Sequence record: KC801932
Direction: 5' to 3' (one strand)
DNA length: 64,000 nucleotides
From: Escherichia phage Lw1
In this document: in pieces, positions 17,530-53,679 of the stretch
How positions within the stretch are numbered: the first letter of the stretch is position 1
Layout: each line of letters starts with the position of its first letter
Translations under genes and position numbers: made by a program
The notes under the pieces: generated by a model
Seen by the model: only the letters and a program-made list of their open reading frames with translations
Told to the model about the DNA's origin: nothing
Database searches by the model: none

Positions 17530-17607
17530 GGCCCCTTAGCTCAATTGGTTAGAGCGAACCCCTCATAAGGGTGTGGTTTCCGGTTCAAGTCACGGAAGGG
17601 GCCACCA
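17530..17607 (+). tRNA. tRNA with anticodon CAU (Met or Ile2 type)
   Basis: Hand-folded cloverleaf: 7-bp acceptor stem GGCCCCT/AGGGGCC, D-arm GCTC/GAGC, anticodon loop CTCATAA, T-loop TTCAAGT, encoded CCA; A-G mismatch in anticodon stem and a bulged A in T-stem. Confidence 0.65.
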
Positions 17608-39981: not shown

Positions 39982-40236
39982 TTAAAAAAGATGCGTTAAA
40001 TGTCCTGCATTGCTGGGGTATTCGACGTAATCACCACGGAAGATGTTCAAATCTTTATCAAATTTAAACCCATGTCCTTGAACATCTTCATGACGAGATA
40101 CATAAGATACTCCATACTTTTCAAGGTCTTCCATATACATTTCGGTGATTCTCTTCGCTTTATCCAATCCGCGTCCCTCAAATCGAGAACGTCGATAATT
40201 CGCAAGAAGAAACGCATATAATTCTTCGTATGTCAT
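39982..40236 (-). CDS. Hypothetical protein (84 aa)
   Basis: ORF ATGA-coupled into methyltransferase gene. Confidence 0.4.
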   Translation of the reverse strand: MTYEELYAFLLANYRRSRFEGRGLDKAKRITEMYMEDLEKYGVSYVSRHEDVQGHGFKFDKDLNIFRGDYVEYPSNAGHLTHLF

Positions 40237-41144
40237 TTCAATACCTTTCTGATTTGTTTCGCTATGGCTTCGATCACGGGTATTGAAACTGAATTTCCCG
40301 CTTGACGATATGCCTGTTTTTTACTATCCGGTATGATAAATGAATCAGGGAATCCCTGCAAACGAAAACACTCACGGGGAGTAAGTCTTCTGGGGTTCTT
40401 TCCTTCCTGCAACACCAGACATTGAACGCCGTCCTTGTAATACTGCTGGGTTATCGTCCCAGTGTGCGTAGAATCGCTTGTGACGGCCTGATAACCAAAC
40501 CCCTTACCATTCGCCTTGTTTCGTTCCTTACGCTCTCTAAAGCCTTTCCACGCGTTATCTGATAGGGTGTATGAATCATCAGCATCTTCGAGGATATCGC
40601 CCACTCTCGTAGGGGTACGCGGAGGAACAGGAAACGAAAAGAATACATCATCCAGGAAGCAAACAATAAACACACGTTCACGTCTTTGTGGTAGTCCGAA
40701 ATCTTTTGTATTCAGTCGTTGATAGAATACGTTATATCCTTCGGCCTCCAGAAGCCCGTAAATCGTTTTAAACGTCTTCCCCTTGTCATGGGTTAGTAGT
40801 TCAGGCACGTTCTCAAAGAACAGCACACGGGGCTTTTTAGCGCGTATGATGCGGAGTATTTCAAAGAACACAGTACCGCGAACATCATCGAACCCCAGTT
40901 TTAATCCTGCTTTACTGAATGCCTGACACGGGAACCCAGCCAACAGGATATCGTGATCAGGTACTTCGGTTTCTTTTATCTGGAACAGATCTCCCTGTAG
41001 GTTATCATTGCCCCAGTTTTCGATATATGTTTGCTGTGCGAACTTGTCGATTTCAGACGTTAAAAGGCATTCGACACCGCCGAACGCCTTATCAAATCCT
41101 AATCGAACCCCGCCCACACCAGCACAGAGGTCAATTATTTTCAT
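40233..41144 (-). CDS. DNA (cytosine-5)-methyltransferase
   Basis: Canonical C5-MTase motifs: I DLCAGVGG, IV GFPCQAFS, VI ENV, VIII QRRERVF, C-terminal X. Confidence 0.85.
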   Translation of the reverse strand: MKIIDLCAGVGGVRLGFDKAFGGVECLLTSEIDKFAQQTYIENWGNDNLQGDLFQIKETEVPDHDILLAGFPCQAFSKAGLKLGFDDVRGTVFFEILRIIRAKKPRVLFFENVPELLTHDKGKTFKTIYGLLEAEGYNVFYQRLNTKDFGLPQRRERVFIVCFLDDVFFSFPVPPRTPTRVGDILEDADDSYTLSDNAWKGFRERKERNKANGKGFGYQAVTSDSTHTGTITQQYYKDGVQCLVLQEGKNPRRLTPRECFRLQGFPDSFIIPDSKKQAYRQAGNSVSIPVIEAIAKQIRKVLK

Positions 41145-44589: not shown

Positions 44590-44648
44590 TCCTTCGTTTC
44601 GATGCCCCTAATATAACAAAAGCCCTCACGCGAACGCAAGGGCTTTTT
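44590..44648 (-). promoter_or_regulatory. PeSL-like promoter cassette, copy 4 (TTGCGT-18-TATATT, hairpin, related leader)
   Basis: On minus strand: -35 at 44634-44639, -10 at 44610-44615; leader GGGGCATCGAAACGAAGGAGG. Confidence 0.5.
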
Positions 44649-44750
44649 TAATCTTTTTATCGACAGAAAGGACAACTAAACTTATCGCCGCTTCCACCAT
44701 GACGAGGACAGCAAATTTTTTCGATTGGTGTCATTGTTAAAATTTTCATT

Positions 44751-45809
44751 TTAAAGTCCAGTAAACGCAACGATAATCTGATAGTGGTCATCGAAGAACT
44801 CACCACGTTTCTGTTTGACTTCGTGCATAGGCATCCAGAACGCCTCTGCTGCATCGTCAGCGCCTCCCATAATACGGGGCAGACTTCCATCATTGTTAGG
44901 CTCTAACTTGATGTATTGCGCTACAGTCGGTTTTGAGAAGTGTACGGAACGCTTCGGATGGTCGAACAGCATAGAATTGCGGATTGAACCACGGATAACC
45001 TTTTCAGGAACCTTGATCCGAACTTCTTCGAGCAATTCGCGGATCGCACAATCCAGGAACGTTTCATTCGCGTTTTTGTGTCCACCTGGCAGGGCTAATG
45101 CGCCTTTACCTGGTGCAAACTTACGACGAATCACTAACACATGGTTATTACAAACAACCACGCTATCACCAGTACAACAGTTTAACGCGTCGGGGTATGG
45201 GTACGCTTTGAACTTCTCCAGTTCATCTTCCCATTTCTCGAACTCGTAGTACAAGCGCCAGAACGTATCGGTCATCATCCATCCGTTAAGAGAACCCACG
45301 ACAGCAGCAGGAACATAACGGGCGATCTTCTCGTCCCATCCATTTTTATGTAAAAAGATGGTTGGACGCAGGTCGGTAGCAGATAAATCTTTGCCGTCAA
45401 CCTTAACCGGATCAACCGGAACATGAGTCCATCCGAACGCTTTAAGCCAGTACGAATCAGCATCTTTTTCGTAACCGTAGATCGCGATGTTATCGCCTTT
45501 GGTTTCGTCGATTGCTGTACGAACAGAGGTTTTCCATTTTTCTTCATTGTAAAGGTAATCTGGAATCGGCTTGAATTGCACACGGGCTACATCTTCGTAT
45601 TTGAACTCAGACAGTAACCAGCTTGTAATCATACGTTCCCGTTCGGTTGCCGTCAGCGGGTTTAAAACGTTAGGGTAAGCATAAGCTGAACCCAGGAGGA
45701 TATAAACGGTCTTCGACTCTTCCAGTGCTTTACGCACCATTGCCGCGTGACCATTATGGAAGGGTTGGAATCTGCCAATTACGACAGCTTTATCAAATTT
45801 GTATTTCAT
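44751..45809 (-). CDS. natV: Bifunctional NMN adenylyltransferase / Nudix hydrolase (NadM-Nudix, NatV-like)
   Basis: N-terminal GRFQPFHNGH nucleotidyltransferase motif; C-terminal Nudix box GGHKNANETFLDCAIRELLEEV; start at ATG 45809 with GGAG RBS. Confidence 0.8.
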   Translation of the reverse strand: MKYKFDKAVVIGRFQPFHNGHAAMVRKALEESKTVYILLGSAYAYPNVLNPLTATERERMITSWLLSEFKYEDVARVQFKPIPDYLYNEEKWKTSVRTAIDETKGDNIAIYGYEKDADSYWLKAFGWTHVPVDPVKVDGKDLSATDLRPTIFLHKNGWDEKIARYVPAAVVGSLNGWMMTDTFWRLYYEFEKWEDELEKFKAYPYPDALNCCTGDSVVVCNNHVLVIRRKFAPGKGALALPGGHKNANETFLDCAIRELLEEVRIKVPEKVIRGSIRNSMLFDHPKRSVHFSKPTVAQYIKLEPNNDGSLPRIMGGADDAAEAFWMPMHEVKQKRGEFFDDHYQIIVAFTGL

Positions 45810-45956
45810 AACGTGCTCCACGTTTAAAGGGTAATCATAAAACAGACGCAATAATCAATACACCAAGCAAACCGCCAATAAAGCCGAAGAATAGCGAAAT
45901 GAAGATAGATAAGATGATCTGTTTTATGTTCATTATAGTATTCTCGTTCTAAGAAT

Positions 45957-45982
45957 CAAGCCCCCAGTGCGGGGGCTTTAAA
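45957..45982 (-). terminator. Hairpin terminator after SPFH gene
   Basis: Minus-strand aaagcccccgcactgggggctt stem-loop. Confidence 0.45.
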
Positions 45983-45985
45983 ATC

Positions 45986-46912
45986 TTATTTACGGGAATC
46001 GAAAATCACTTTACCAGCGTAATCCGAACCCATGACAGTCTGAGGTACACCACCTTTATAACGGGTAGAGTAGTTCATCTGTACATCCAGTTCTTTCCAG
46101 CGGATCATTTCTGGGGTAATTGTGCGTTGCAGTACGGCGTTAGCCTCCGCTTCTTTCTTCGCTGCGTACAGTTTAGCATCAGCATCACGTTCGTTGGCAA
46201 TCGCATCGTTTTCACGCGCCTGACGATTTGCTTCCGCTTGTTTTACCTGTTGCTGTGAAGTCTGTTCGACTTTTGCCAGTTCCGCACGAGCGGCGTTAAC
46301 CTGTTCTTCACGAATTTTCGTGTTAGTTACCTGTTCCATGATAACATCCGGCAGGGTGATATCCTGCAAGAATACCTGTTTCACGGTGTAACCGTAAGGA
46401 CGCGCATACTCTTCGACTTCCTGTTGAATTGCGGTCTGCAACTGGTTCTGGATCTTAGCATCAAACAGATCCTGTGCTTTTGGAACCGATTTGCCGAACT
46501 CGCGAACGGTTGACAGCAGTTTTTCGGTTACATACTTATCCAGTGCCTGTTCCTGGTCTCCCGCGTTGATGCGGTTGATAGGCGCTTTGTTACCGTCAAA
46601 TTGCAGCATAACGGTCATATCAACAGTGGATTTAAACTTATCCTGTGAAGGAACCTGCAATTTATCGAACTTCTTCGCAATGTCTTTCGTGCTGAAAGTA
46701 TCGAAATCAGCCAGCGGGTTTACGATATGGAAACCAGGCAGTACAGGTTTCGGAGAAACCTTACCCATGAAGGTCTGAGTTTTGACCGTGCCGTCCTGTA
46801 CTACTGTAAAGGAGTTCGGAACCAGCCACAGTGCGGCTACTACGCCCAGAGCGATCAGAGTGGTTTTCTTCGGGTTGTTCAGGATAGTATTCATATTCAT
46901 AGTATGTCTCAT
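45986..46912 (-). CDS. SPFH / band-7 (HflK/C, stomatin-like) membrane protein
   Basis: N-terminal TM helix, SPFH core, long Ala/Glu/Gln coiled-coil C-terminus typical of HflK/C. Confidence 0.65.
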   Translation of the reverse strand: MRHTMNMNTILNNPKKTTLIALGVVAALWLVPNSFTVVQDGTVKTQTFMGKVSPKPVLPGFHIVNPLADFDTFSTKDIAKKFDKLQVPSQDKFKSTVDMTVMLQFDGNKAPINRINAGDQEQALDKYVTEKLLSTVREFGKSVPKAQDLFDAKIQNQLQTAIQQEVEEYARPYGYTVKQVFLQDITLPDVIMEQVTNTKIREEQVNAARAELAKVEQTSQQQVKQAEANRQARENDAIANERDADAKLYAAKKEAEANAVLQRTITPEMIRWKELDVQMNYSTRYKGGVPQTVMGSDYAGKVIFDSRK

Positions 46913-46976
46913 TTAAGTTTATGTTTCAATTCGATAGTTATTCTATCATCACCATTCAGCTTGTCAAATACTTTTT

Positions 46977-49142: not shown

Positions 49143-49619
49143 TCATAATTCCACCTTACGCATATCAATAGACGGATCGAAGTGTACCACGATGGTCGGA
49201 TAGTCGCCAGTAGAATCGTTTATAATGTCTTTAATGCGTTCCCAGTCGCCTCCAGCAAGCCCCGCACCAATAAGAGGGTAACGTTCAGGACACGCCCTGG
49301 CGCTTTCCACGGCGCTTTCAAAGCATGAACGGATTGCGTCGTAATCCACTTGTGGGCCAGCACCCCAGAACTTAAACTGGGTATAGGCGTTGAACACCAT
49401 ACGACCATCCTCTTGAACATAAACAGAGTTACGGCCCAGTTTTTTCTGGTTGCCTTTAAGCGTCATTGCATCCATTCGAAACGCGCCAGGGATTTTCTTC
49501 TTTACTTCTTTTGCAATCCCCGCACCCATATTACAGAAGCAGTTACACCCATGAATCAGGTGTACGTCACGACGAAGGAACAACTCAACAGCGTTCCCTT
49601 TAATCTCTTTGATAATCAT
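49143..49619 (-). CDS. Macro domain protein (ADP-ribose binding / hydrolase)
   Basis: Macro-like glycine-rich motifs (GCNCFCNMGAGIA, IGAGLAGGDW). Confidence 0.7.
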   Translation of the reverse strand: MIIKEIKGNAVELFLRRDVHLIHGCNCFCNMGAGIAKEVKKKIPGAFRMDAMTLKGNQKKLGRNSVYVQEDGRMVFNAYTQFKFWGAGPQVDYDAIRSCFESAVESARACPERYPLIGAGLAGGDWERIKDIINDSTGDYPTIVVHFDPSIDMRKVEL

Positions 49620-52335: not shown

Positions 52336-53679
52336 TTAAAAGTTGTCTTCGACGAATGCTGCCAGGCGTCCACGATACACAGTATTCAGGATTATGTGAC
52401 TAGCATGGTCATATTCTTTAAGTTTTTCAACAGCATAGACAAAACCGTTGTTTACAGCAGTGTTTCGCGGGTTGTCAATCTGCTTAATATTCCCGCATAG
52501 TATCAGAAGTGTATTCTCTCCGCAACGGGAAATAATGGATTTTATTTCATGGTTGCTCAAGTTTTGACATTCGTCAACAATCAGCACTGAACCTTTACCA
52601 GGATCTGGGTGTCCGATAGAACGCCCACGGAAGTAATACAGGCTAGGGAACTGCACCACGCCTTTTTCCAGAAGTCCTTCAACGTACTTGTCAACTTCCG
52701 GTTGATCCTTAAACAGAATATTCAGGCTCGTGATACACGGTTCAACCGATGGTCGGAGTTTTTCACCCAGAGTACCAGGCAAGAACCCTATTTCACCAGA
52801 CAGCGGACTATCTGCCTTGACATACATCAGGTTTGCGAAGTGTCCCGCGTTAACCATGTGCATTGCGCCAGCAACCGCCAGCATTGTTTTACCCGAACCC
52901 GCCGCACCCATGATGGTCACAACGTCATTGTTCTTGTCCAGGATCGCATCAACGAATGACGCTTGCAGAGCATCGCGGGGCTGAATTGTTTTCATCAGCT
53001 TACGCTTTAACGCTTGTTCGTGCTTAATAGGCAACACTTCAAGCTGAAACTCTCCAGCAGCCACCACACGCCCTACAATCTCACCATCCGATAGAATGTA
53101 TTGGTTAGGGTAGAAATCCGCGTCAGGAAGCGATGAATACGTTATAACGGCAACAGGCCCGACATACTCCATGACTTCGACAGTTTCCCAGAACAGCGGC
53201 AGGTCGATATAACCTGAATACAACACATCACTATCTTTCAGCGAGTCATCGCCAGTGTATTGAAGAACCGGACAACCTTTAGACATCGCGATCAACAGCA
53301 TGTTAATGTCACGAGTCACCAGCGTTGCGCCCTGTTGAATACAGGTTGCAATGATCCGCGCATCCTGTTTATCGAGAGGGAACTCTTCGGGGCCGACATA
53401 ATCGACAATTTTGAGTGTTACACTTTCCGGTACTGCTGGGTTTGTTAAGTTTAACGAAACCCCTGTTTGGGTAATTGCTTCATAATTTTGTCCCAGGATT
53501 GCTTTGGACAATAGCCGGATCGCCAGTCGTGCTTCATGAGCGGTTCGCTCTTTGCTTTTCAGGTGATCCAGTTCTTCCATCGTTGCAGCAGTGATAATAA
53601 TTTCAGTATCAGGTTCGATGAAAGAGTAAACTGAATAGGGGTTCGAGATCAAAACGTTTGTATCGAGAACATATTTCAT
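52336..53679 (-). CDS. phoH: PIN-PhoH fusion protein (PhoH2/YlaK-like ATPase)
   Basis: N-terminal PIN (MKYVLDTNVLIS), C-terminal PhoH P-loop GAAGSGKT and DEAQN-like box (VDECQN). Confidence 0.8.
   Translation of the reverse strand: MKYVLDTNVLISNPYSVYSFIEPDTEIIITAATMEELDHLKSKERTAHEARLAIRLLSKAILGQNYEAITQTGVSLNLTNPAVPESVTLKIVDYVGPEEFPLDKQDARIIATCIQQGATLVTRDINMLLIAMSKGCPVLQYTGDDSLKDSDVLYSGYIDLPLFWETVEVMEYVGPVAVITYSSLPDADFYPNQYILSDGEIVGRVVAAGEFQLEVLPIKHEQALKRKLMKTIQPRDALQASFVDAILDKNNDVVTIMGAAGSGKTMLAVAGAMHMVNAGHFANLMYVKADSPLSGEIGFLPGTLGEKLRPSVEPCITSLNILFKDQPEVDKYVEGLLEKGVVQFPSLYYFRGRSIGHPDPGKGSVLIVDECQNLSNHEIKSIISRCGENTLLILCGNIKQIDNPRNTAVNNGFVYAVEKLKEYDHASHIILNTVYRGRLAAFVEDNF

Follow-up and report, generated by a model that had tools for sequence, protein, structure and literature searches.

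The natV locus

The window analysed here, a stretch of 64,000 nucleotides from the genome of Escherichia phage Lw1 (sequence record KC801932), a T4-like Pseudotevenvirus, is about 90-93% identical at the nucleotide level to RB16, Miller and CfP1. An intact open reading frame of 352 codons on the minus strand, designated natV, fills positions 44751-45809 exactly, starting with an ATG at 45809 and ending with a TAA at 44751-44753 (Table 1). A longer, TTG-initiated reading of the gene (to 45851) is unnecessary since this ATG and the Shine-Dalgarno element preceding it are invariant in RB16, CfP1 and KP27. The base composition of natV is normal (46% GC compared to 43%), and the gene is situated in an early region of the tk / rI / nrdC type. 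A Tk.4-like gene encoding an ADP-ribose-handling Macro domain is located 3.3 kb from natV. This Macro domain is the only other NAD-pathway component found among the 20 neighbouring proteins, within which NadR, PnuC, NADAR, ART and a second Nudix protein are absent.

Table 1. Features of the natV cassette of phage Lw1 and of its predicted product (positions refer to the window).
Feature	Position	Strand	Remarks
Stem-loop 3' of the upstream SPFH gene	45958..45979	-	Terminator-like, weak T-tract; 8-bp GC stem, -16 kcal/mol, z -3.3
Promoter-like site 5' of natV, sigma-70 / T4-early type	45932..45959	-	TTGATT-16 nt-TATAAT; 10/12 matches; putative function
32-aa hydrophobic micro-ORF (MNIKQIILSIFISLFFGFIGGLLGVLIIASVL)	45835..45933	-	Membrane peptide; between promoter and natV; conserved in relatives
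Shine-Dalgarno element GGAG	45816..45819	-	6 nt 5' of the natV ATG; invariant in RB16, CfP1, KP27
natV, bifunctional NMN adenylyltransferase / Nudix (ADP-ribose pyrophosphatase) gene	44751..45809	-	352 aa plus stop; ORF, PRK05379, PHROG 395, PDB 2QJO, RB16p129
N-terminal NadM-type NMN adenylyltransferase domain (about aa 1-155)	45345..45809	-	Pfam, NCBIfam and PDB matches
HxGH motif HNGH (aa 18-21)	45747..45758	-	ATP-binding signature of HIGH-type nucleotidyltransferases
SxTxxR motif SATDLR (aa 143-148)	45366..45383	-	Second NMNAT signature; alignments to 2QJO/2QJT
C-terminal Nudix hydrolase domain (about aa 212-352)	44754..45176	-	Pfam NUDIX aa 216-340; PHROG 1198
Nudix box GHKNANETFLDCAIRELLEEVRI (aa 243-265)	45015..45083	-	Catalytic R257, E258, E261, E262; RExxEE intact
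30-aa Cys/His micro-ORF (MKILTMTPIEKICCPRHGGSGDKFSCPFCR)	44657..44749	-	CxxH...CxxC; begins 1 nt past the natV stop
Intrinsic terminator, end of natV cassette	44618..44647	-	13-bp stem plus T-run, -18.9 kcal/mol, z -4.85

natV occupies its own terminator-promoter-terminator cassette. The stem-loop following the SPFH gene is conserved, and the CfP1 record annotates a terminator at this place. The position of the promoter-like site is kept in the relatives, where it reads TTGACA-16-TATAAT in KP27, whose record annotates the corresponding site as a promoter, and TTGACT-16-TACAAT in RB43 and GuL6. The terminator closing the cassette is conserved in four relatives and annotated as such in CfP1 and KP27. 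A dedicated promoter of the sigma-70 type probably drives early transcription of natV; no T4 late promoter (TATAAATA) was found near natV on the coding strand. The start codon of the 32-aa micro-ORF and the -10 box of the promoter-like site share nucleotides, which makes the transcript structure uncertain.

The 120 nt between promoter and natV were considered as a structured leader RNA (riboswitch or attenuator), yet their predicted folding is no stronger than that of shuffled sequences (z -0.28), and there is no Rfam match within the window. This reading was rejected. The codon substitutions suggest that the leader rather holds a short protein-coding gene, namely the 32-aa micro-ORF, which differs from its KP27 counterpart by 10 synonymous and five conservative codon changes. 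It is found in RB16, CfP1, RB43, GuL6, EcRAM-01 and KP27 but annotated in EcRAM-01 only. The 30-aa micro-ORF is conserved in CfP1, RB43, GuL6 and EcRAM-01, being annotated in the last of these, and is replaced by an unrelated stretch of about 100 nt in RB16 and KP27. Neither of the two has a match in PHROG, and they may well be unrelated small genes of a kind abundant in T4-like genomes. That the encoded peptides act as partners or regulators of NatV or, separately, that the Nudix domain serves a NadV-independent role, such as the removal of ADP-ribose-derived products or signals of defence systems, strikes us as distinctly improbable.

NatV is a NadM-Nudix type protein

NatV matches the NCBIfam model PRK05379 (bifunctional NMNAT/Nudix) over its full length (E 1e-78) and PHROG 395 with an E-value of 5e-100. 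Its residues 2-350 align to residues 4-338 of PDB entry 2QJO (E 7.6e-54), and residues 4-347 to residues 6-342 of 2QJT (E 6.5e-46). Matches of this strength lie far outside the range of chance. Both of its Pfam matches, NUDIX (E 7e-15) and CTP_transf_like (E 1.5e-8), exceed the gathering score. The latter covers residues 10-70 of the N-terminal domain, which, over residues 3-153, is also recognised by PRK13793 (E 1e-25) and by the archaeal NMNAT model TIGR01527 (E 7e-15), and which in addition matches the archaeal NMNAT structures 1F9A and 1EJ2.

The HNGH motif of this domain aligns to HLGH of 2QJO and to HKGH of 2QJT, all three agreeing with the pattern (H/T)xGH, and the SATDLR motif aligns to SSTAIR (2QJO) and NATEFR (2QJT). 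In an alignment of 10 phage NatV sequences His18, Gly20 and His21 of the first motif as well as Thr145 and Arg148 of the second are nearly invariant. Within the Nudix box Arg257, Glu258, Glu261 and Glu262 are invariant in all 10 phage homologues, and the usual penultimate glycine is replaced by an arginine, as is likewise the case in 2QJO (EETRL). Further, family-specific motifs of the C-terminal domain, FDxPxRS, DDAxxAxW and DHxxI, are common to 2QJO and the phage homologues. The sequence-only reading had assigned the gene to the NadM-Nudix type on account of an HxGH motif combined with a Nudix box, and had made this assignment dependent on an alignment. Both motifs are indeed present, they hold when aligned with 2QJO, 2QJT and the 10 phage homologues, and the alignment to the two structures is collinear over the full length.

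RefSeq records and PHROG 395 carry the label “cytidyltransferase”, and the N-terminal Pfam match is to the generic CTP_transf_like family, which might suggest that the natV product is a cytidyltransferase, or else an inactive relic, rather than an NMN adenylyltransferase. However, the label is a superfamily name; the best specific matches are all to NMNATs (PRK05379, PRK13793, TIGR01527) and to solved NadM-Nudix structures, and the catalytic motifs are all intact and kept across distant phages, so that we regard such a product as extremely improbable. NatV does stay below each of the equivalog cut-offs of the seven PRK05379 sub-models, the best being NF003786 with 265 bits versus 397, which places it in a phage clade (PHROG 395) and not in a curated bacterial subfamily. 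This limits automatic naming of the protein and leaves its assignment at the family level unaffected.

The partner gene nadV

A tblastn search of the 64-kb window with the NadV protein of the Pseudotevenvirus phi5, which is 92.5% identical to RB16 NadV, returned chance matches only (E of at least 2.8), in agreement with the earlier observation that no NadV partner is visible in this stretch. An intact nadV is present in all 12 relatives checked, including RB16, RB43, Miller, CfP1, IME-CF2 and GuL6, in which six its product is 91-93% identical to the query. In RB16, RB43, Miller, CfP1 and GuL6 natV and nadV are separated by 71-72 kb; the coordinates in RB16 (HM134276) are 77775-78836 for natV and 150521-151951 for nadV. 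Such a distance from natV would place the gene beyond the window's right end, which accounts for its absence from the window, and Lw1 presumably encodes it there.

At the level of genomes the co-occurrence of NatV and NadV is essentially complete. With a threshold of at least 60% identity 175 records contain a homologue of NatV and 178 one of NadV, the genus counts being near-identical. According to a passage in PMC7139368, which cites Lee et al. 2017, all 50 phages with NatV known in 2017 have nadV. Furthermore, the Nampt (NadV) of both RB16 and CfP1 is tabulated as “Nmnat-associated”, the state which defines NARP2 (Osterman et al. 2024, Table S2, 10.1101/2024.02.11.579819).

The large distance between the two genes, the placement of natV in its own promoter-terminator cassette, the absence of nadV from the 64-kb window and the Macro-domain gene in the vicinity of natV could also be taken to mean that NatV works independently of NadV in this phage group. 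It would then re-adenylylate NMN originating from host LigA turnover, or imported NMN or NR, or would mainly serve the clearance of ADP-ribose or molecules derived from it by means of its Nudix domain. We hold this to be improbable in view of the co-occurrence described above. Moreover, the genes are apart in phages of the KVP40 genus too (in phi-ST2 nadV is not found within 6 kb of natV), and yet the KVP40 pair works jointly, and in some other phages natV and nadV are adjacent.

Proposed function and anti-defence role

Taken as a whole, NatV is very probably the Pseudotevenvirus orthologue of the phage NatV proteins, a bifunctional NadM-Nudix enzyme which together with NadV constitutes NARP2. 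On the strength of its characterised homologues, NatV is predicted to use its N-terminal domain to bind ATP via its HxGH and SxTxxR motifs and to convert NMN and ATP to NAD+ and PPi. The C-terminal Nudix domain, again by homology, would cleave ADP-ribose to AMP and ribose-5-phosphate and hydrolyse NAD(H) more weakly. NadV would feed NatV by forming NMN from nicotinamide and PRPP, and the two proteins would make up the NARP2 pathway, yielding NAD+ from nicotinamide, PRPP and ATP. Such a pathway may keep the phage replicating while host NADases of the SIR2, TIR, SEFIR or RES type deplete NAD+, and the Nudix activity may recycle the ADP-ribose fragment, its ribose-5-phosphate being converted to PRPP via host Prs.

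The connection between phage NAD salvage and the counteraction of NAD-depleting defences, put forward in the sequence-only reading, is documented for NadV and NatV of KVP40 (10.1101/2024.02.11.579819; 10.64898/2026.01.28.702374). These two proteins form NARP2, which is effective against type I Thoeris and further defences that deplete NAD+. NARP2 increases the NAD+ level of infected cells, and as a knock-in it enables a phage to escape type I Thoeris in part (10.1101/2024.02.11.579819); the two proteins also cancel aRES defence (10.64898/2026.01.28.702374). All functional data behind the role of NatV concern the KVP40 genes (about 41% identical) and bacterial NadM-Nudix enzymes; a search of the literature found no experimental study of any Pseudotevenvirus NatV or NatV/NadV pair.

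natV, along with nadV, might instead be a general auxiliary metabolic gene which enlarges or maintains the NAD+ pool for the nucleotide and energy metabolism of the rapidly replicating phage and was not selected primarily for counter-defence. The placement of natV in the early region and its base composition, which is consistent with long residence, would suit such a role. In the study by Lee et al. from 2017, KVP40 nadV and natV are reported to be expressed early and delayed-early, alongside nucleotide-precursor genes, which would suit it as well. NARP2 lifts NAD+ even in defence-free cells and so produces it with or without a defence system (10.1101/2024.02.11.579819). By sequence, an anti-defence function and a general NAD supply are inseparable. 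Against a mainly metabolic role stand the direct experiments with the KVP40 genes, which show rescue from NAD-depleting defences, and the cost or toxicity of NARP2 to cells, which argues for a strong specific benefit. We consider this alternative possible but unlikely, and one role need not preclude the other.

Under the preferred assignment to NARP2, natV likely marks Lw1 as a carrier of this pathway, and as such the phage is predicted to be resistant to SIR2-HerA, DSR1/2, type I Thoeris and aRES. Knowledge of the NARP2 status would be of use in the choice or engineering of therapeutic phages directed against Enterobacteriaceae. Given the toxicity of the KVP40 operon to E. coli, pseudotevenviruses infecting E. 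coli or Citrobacter would offer a convenient opportunity to study NARP2 in its native phage. The significance of natV in itself extends little beyond correct annotation; the RefSeq family label “cytidyltransferase” obscures its NAD-related function.

Comparison with known systems

Among bacterial enzymes, slr0787 of Synechocystis (PDB 2QJO) and NadM of Francisella tularensis (PDB 2QJT, 2R5W) are collinear with the whole of Lw1 NatV, with which they share the HxGH and SxTxxR motifs, the Nudix box and the C-terminal FDxPxRS, DDAxxAxW and DH motifs. Unlike these NadM-Nudix proteins, Lw1 NatV is phage-encoded, is preceded by a putative phage promoter and scores below the NCBIfam equivalog cut-offs. 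The NadR-type NMNAT of NARP3 (Bas30_86, together with PnuC) possesses a homologous NMNAT domain of the HIGH type and leads to the same end product, NAD+. In NadR, however, the NMNAT domain is fused to a ribosylnicotinamide kinase domain, and the partner is the transporter PnuC (PMC13464706). NadR models match NatV at residues 6-154 only (E 6e-12 to 6e-9), and neither PnuC nor a kinase domain was found among the 20 neighbouring proteins scanned. As the C-terminal domain of NatV is a Nudix domain and the partner in the relatives is NadV, membership of NatV in the NadR / NARP3 group was rejected.

NatV of phi-ST2, a phage of the KVP40 genus (Schizotequatrovirus), is 41% identical to Lw1 NatV over 98% of the length (E 4e-61). 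NatV of the KVP40 type is the Nmnat component of NARP2 and has the same two-domain order and the same motifs as the Lw1 protein. As in the relatives of Lw1, NadV is encoded elsewhere in the genomes of the KVP40 genus and does not adjoin natV. The hosts of these phages are Vibrio, whereas those of Pseudotevenvirus are Enterobacteriaceae.

Within Pseudotevenvirus, orthologues of NatV are also present in the Citrobacter phages Miller, CfP1 and IME-CF2. The 3' side of natV in Lw1, with its 30-aa Cys/His micro-ORF, resembles that of CfP1 and RB43 and differs from that of Escherichia phage RB16 (HM134276), which harbours an unrelated stretch. On the upstream side RB16 shares with Lw1 the neighbouring SPFH/band-7 gene, rI.-1, rI and tk as well as the terminator, the promoter and the 32-aa micro-ORF. 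RB16p129 itself is 96.9% identical to Lw1 NatV over the full length, about 3% of the amino acids being different. The function of natV is already known in so far as this orthologue was annotated in 2010 as [quoted passage not shown].

Domain architecture of NatV

The sequence-only reading had proposed a NatV-like bifunctional NMN adenylyltransferase/Nudix gene. This gene, natV, is on the minus strand, and its product NatV does possess the NadM-Nudix architecture. Two Pfam matches exceed the gathering score: aa 10-70 match a cytidylyltransferase-like domain of the HIGH nucleotidyltransferase type, and aa 216-340 match NUDIX. The seven top NCBIfam models are without exception PRK05379 sub-models, named 'bifunctional nicotinamide-nucleotide adenylyltransferase/Nudix hydrolase' in NCBIfam, which match end to end (best E 1e-78), and PHROG 395 is matched with E 5e-100. 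The two top matches among solved structures are characterised bacterial NadM-Nudix enzymes, namely Synechocystis slr0787 (2QJO; E 7.6e-54, query 2-350 on chain 4-338) and Francisella NadM (2QJT/2R5W; E 6.5e-46). This agreement is far beyond chance.

The HxGH and Nudix motifs are present and are upheld by an alignment of ten phage NatV homologues with identities as low as 30%. None of the four Nudix catalytic residues varies within this set; at least nine of the sequences retain His18, Gly20, His21, Thr145 and Arg148, and the C-terminal family motifs FDxPxRS, DDAxxAxW and DH are conserved as well. Hence, NatV displays all sequence-level features which define NadM-Nudix enzymes, except that it remains below the NCBIfam equivalog cut-offs (265 versus 397 bits) and is therefore placed in a phage clade, not in a curated bacterial subfamily.

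RefSeq versions of related records name the orthologue 'cytidyltransferase', following the PHROG label. We rejected this identity, as we did the reading of NatV as a dead enzyme, because every specific match is to an NMNAT family and the catalytic motifs are all conserved. In the older RB43 record AY967407 (919-1977, minus strand) NatV has GKIYLRPIYDQPSF in place of the GKDLSATDLRPTIF shared by all relatives; a short compensated frameshift, which may reflect an error in sequencing or a genuine lesion of the isolate, erases the SxTxxR motif.

Positions of natV, its protein motifs and other features of the window
Feature	Position	Strand	Details
natV	44751-45809	-	352 aa plus stop
HNGH (HxGH motif)	aa 18-21		NatV N-terminal domain
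SATDLR	aa 143-148		second NMNAT signature of NatV
Nudix box GHKNANETFLDCAIRELLEEVRI	aa 243-265		R257, E258, E261, E262
Intrinsic terminator	44618-44647	-	strong, closes natV unit; 13-bp stem, z -4.85
Cys/His micro-ORF MKILTMTPIEKICCPRHGGSGDKFSCPFCR	44657-44749	-	30 aa; CxxH-x9-CxxC, zinc-knuckle-like; start 1 nt past natV stop
Hydrophobic micro-ORF MNIKQIILSIFISLFFGFIGGLLGVLIIASVL	45835-45933	-	32 aa; very hydrophobic, GRAVY 2.1; between promoter-like site and natV
Promoter-like site	45932-45959	-	sigma-70/T4-early-type, TTGATT-16-TATAAT, 10/12 matches
Hairpin	45958-45979	-	GC-rich, after upstream SPFH gene; z -3.3
SPFH/Band-7 gene	45986-46912	-	308 aa, N-terminal hydrophobic segment; directly upstream of natV
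Promoter-like site of SPFH/Band-7 gene	46940-46967		strong, TTGACA-16-TAGAAT
Macro-domain gene	49143-49619	-	158 aa, Tk.4-like/Poa1p-like; 3.3 kb upstream of natV
PhoH-like ATPase gene	52336-53679	-	447 aa, fused to N-terminal PIN nuclease domain
C-5 cytosine DNA methyltransferase gene	40233-41144	-	Pfam E 9e-93
tRNA-Met	17530-17607	+	only tRNA gene in the window

Gene extent and expression signals

The natV reading frame is uninterrupted up to its end at 44751 and opens, in the mechanical ORF list, with a TTG at 45851. The true start is likely the ATG at 45809, since a GGAG Shine-Dalgarno sequence is located 6 nt 5' of it, since both elements are invariant among the aligned relatives and since the annotated coding sequences of CfP1 and RB43 are equally long (1059 nt). 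The extent proposed from the sequence alone thus coincides exactly with the gene.

The promoter-like site upstream of natV is overlapped by the GC-rich hairpin, and its counterpart in KP27 is a perfect TTGACA-16-TATAAT, annotated as a promoter there. A T4 late promoter motif was not found near natV. Together with the terminator, this layout fits autonomous and presumably early expression of natV.

Both micro-ORFs flanking natV recur in relatives. The hydrophobic one is conserved in RB16, CfP1, RB43, GuL6, EcRAM-01 and KP27, most of the differences being synonymous or conservative (10 and 5 codon changes, respectively, versus KP27). Of seven relatives, EcRAM-01 alone has it annotated, and PHROG gives no match to it. 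Its ATG overlaps the -10 box TATAAT, so that it would be translatable only from transcripts crossing the upstream hairpin. The Cys/His micro-ORF is conserved in CfP1, RB43, GuL6 and EcRAM-01; in RB16 and KP27 it is replaced by an unrelated stretch of about 100 nt directly 5' of the same conserved terminator.

Relatives and genomic neighbourhood

The 4 kb around natV match 177 phage records, all of them T4-like Straboviridae of enterobacteria. The best matches are to Escherichia phage RB16, at 95.2% identity across 90% of the query, and to the Citrobacter phages CfP1, Miller and IME-CF2, at 91.5-92.3% across 98-100%. A 25-kb comparison with relatives yields 90-93% identity at 85-91% coverage. 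From these identities the window derives from a Pseudotevenvirus. The gene order (nrdC.11, small ORFs, natV, SPFH/band-7 gene, rI.-1, rI, tk) is that of RB16, whose orthologue RB16p129 is 96.9% identical to NatV and annotated in the RB16 record as 'putative bifunctional protein: NMN adenylyltransferase/NUDIX hydrolase'; equivalent names appear in several further records. Accordingly, natV is the orthologue of a gene annotated with the same function since publication of the RB16 genome, and is already known and ordinary.

The SPFH/Band-7 protein matches Pfam Band_7 (E 2e-15) and PHROG 200 'lipoprotein'. The Macro-domain protein, found in about 2700 phage records, matches Pfam Macro (E 1e-5), PDB 2FG1/2AFC (E 1.6e-6) and PHROG 335 'phosphatase' (E 1e-53), and its gene, beside natV itself, makes a second one in this region for handling ADP-ribose. 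Between tk and the RB16p137 homologue the window is about 650 nt longer than RB16, which therefore lacks the Macro-domain gene at this position; IME-CF2 carries it (86% identity). The cytosine methyltransferase is typical of the RB16/RB43 group. No Rfam family reaches the gathering threshold in the window (1-64000). The shift of the genes from the plus to the minus strand near 32 kb coincides with a reversal in the sign of the GC skew.

The nadV partner

NadV (Nampt), the nicotinamide phosphoribosyltransferase which would act together with NatV, had been reported missing from the window, and tblastn with Pseudotevenvirus NadV indeed found no nadV there (best match E 2.8). The same query retrieved intact, full-length nadV in close relatives: RB16 and GuL6 (92.5% identity each), RB43 (91.8-93.1%), Miller, CfP1 and IME-CF2 (91.2%), and about 45 Enterobacter, Cronobacter and Klebsiella pseudotevenvirus records (96-100%). 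In RB16, natV (77775-78836) and nadV (150521-151951) are about 72 kb apart, and a spacing of 71-72 kb also occurs in RB43, Miller, CfP1 and GuL6. By synteny the window corresponds to about 33-97 kb of RB16, so nadV is expected well past its right end, and the Lw1 genome probably contains it.

Such separation is not unusual. The two genes adjoin in GAP32, phiM7 and CcrBL9, and 3.8 kb separates them in Aeromonas phage AS-gz; phi-ST2, of the KVP40 genus, has no nadV within 6 kb of natV. At a threshold of at least 60% identity, 175 records of the phage collection harbour a NatV and 178 a NadV homologue, with nearly identical genus distributions. According to PMC7139368, citing Lee et al. 2017, nadV occurs in every one of the 50 phages that were known in 2017 to have NatV, and Nmnat is also present in 94% of phages with KVP40-type Nampt (10.1101/2024.02.11.579819), RB16 and CfP1 Nampt being listed as 'Nmnat-associated' in Table S2 of that work. 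NatV may have a role independent of NadV, but this near-complete co-occurrence counts against it.

Proposed function and comparison with known systems

By homology, the N-terminal domain would convert NMN and ATP to NAD+ and PPi, and the Nudix domain would cleave ADP-ribose to AMP and ribose-5-phosphate, with NAD(H) as a weaker substrate. These two activities have been measured for bacterial NadM-Nudix enzymes; for KVP40 NatV, Lee et al. in 2017 reportedly measured NMN adenylyltransferase activity and hydrolysis of ADP-ribose and NAD(H). With NadV making NMN from nicotinamide and PRPP, NatV would complete a two-step rebuilding of NAD+.

The suggested link between phage NAD salvage and NAD-depleting defences is borne out in the literature for this pair, named NARP2, which counters such systems, raises NAD+ in infected cells and, when knocked into a phage, enables it to escape type I Thoeris in part (10.1101/2024.02.11.579819); it also cancels aRES, which defeats NARP1 (10.64898/2026.01.28.702374). 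A defence-related benefit of natV to Lw1 would be in line with this. It is plausible that the same enzyme serves general NAD supply instead, since NARP2 produces NAD+ with or without defence (10.1101/2024.02.11.579819); the two roles are not exclusive. The window gene shows the homology to NatV which characterises NARP2. The NadR/NARP3 architecture does not apply, as the C-terminal domain of NatV is a Nudix domain and that of NadR-type proteins a kinase.
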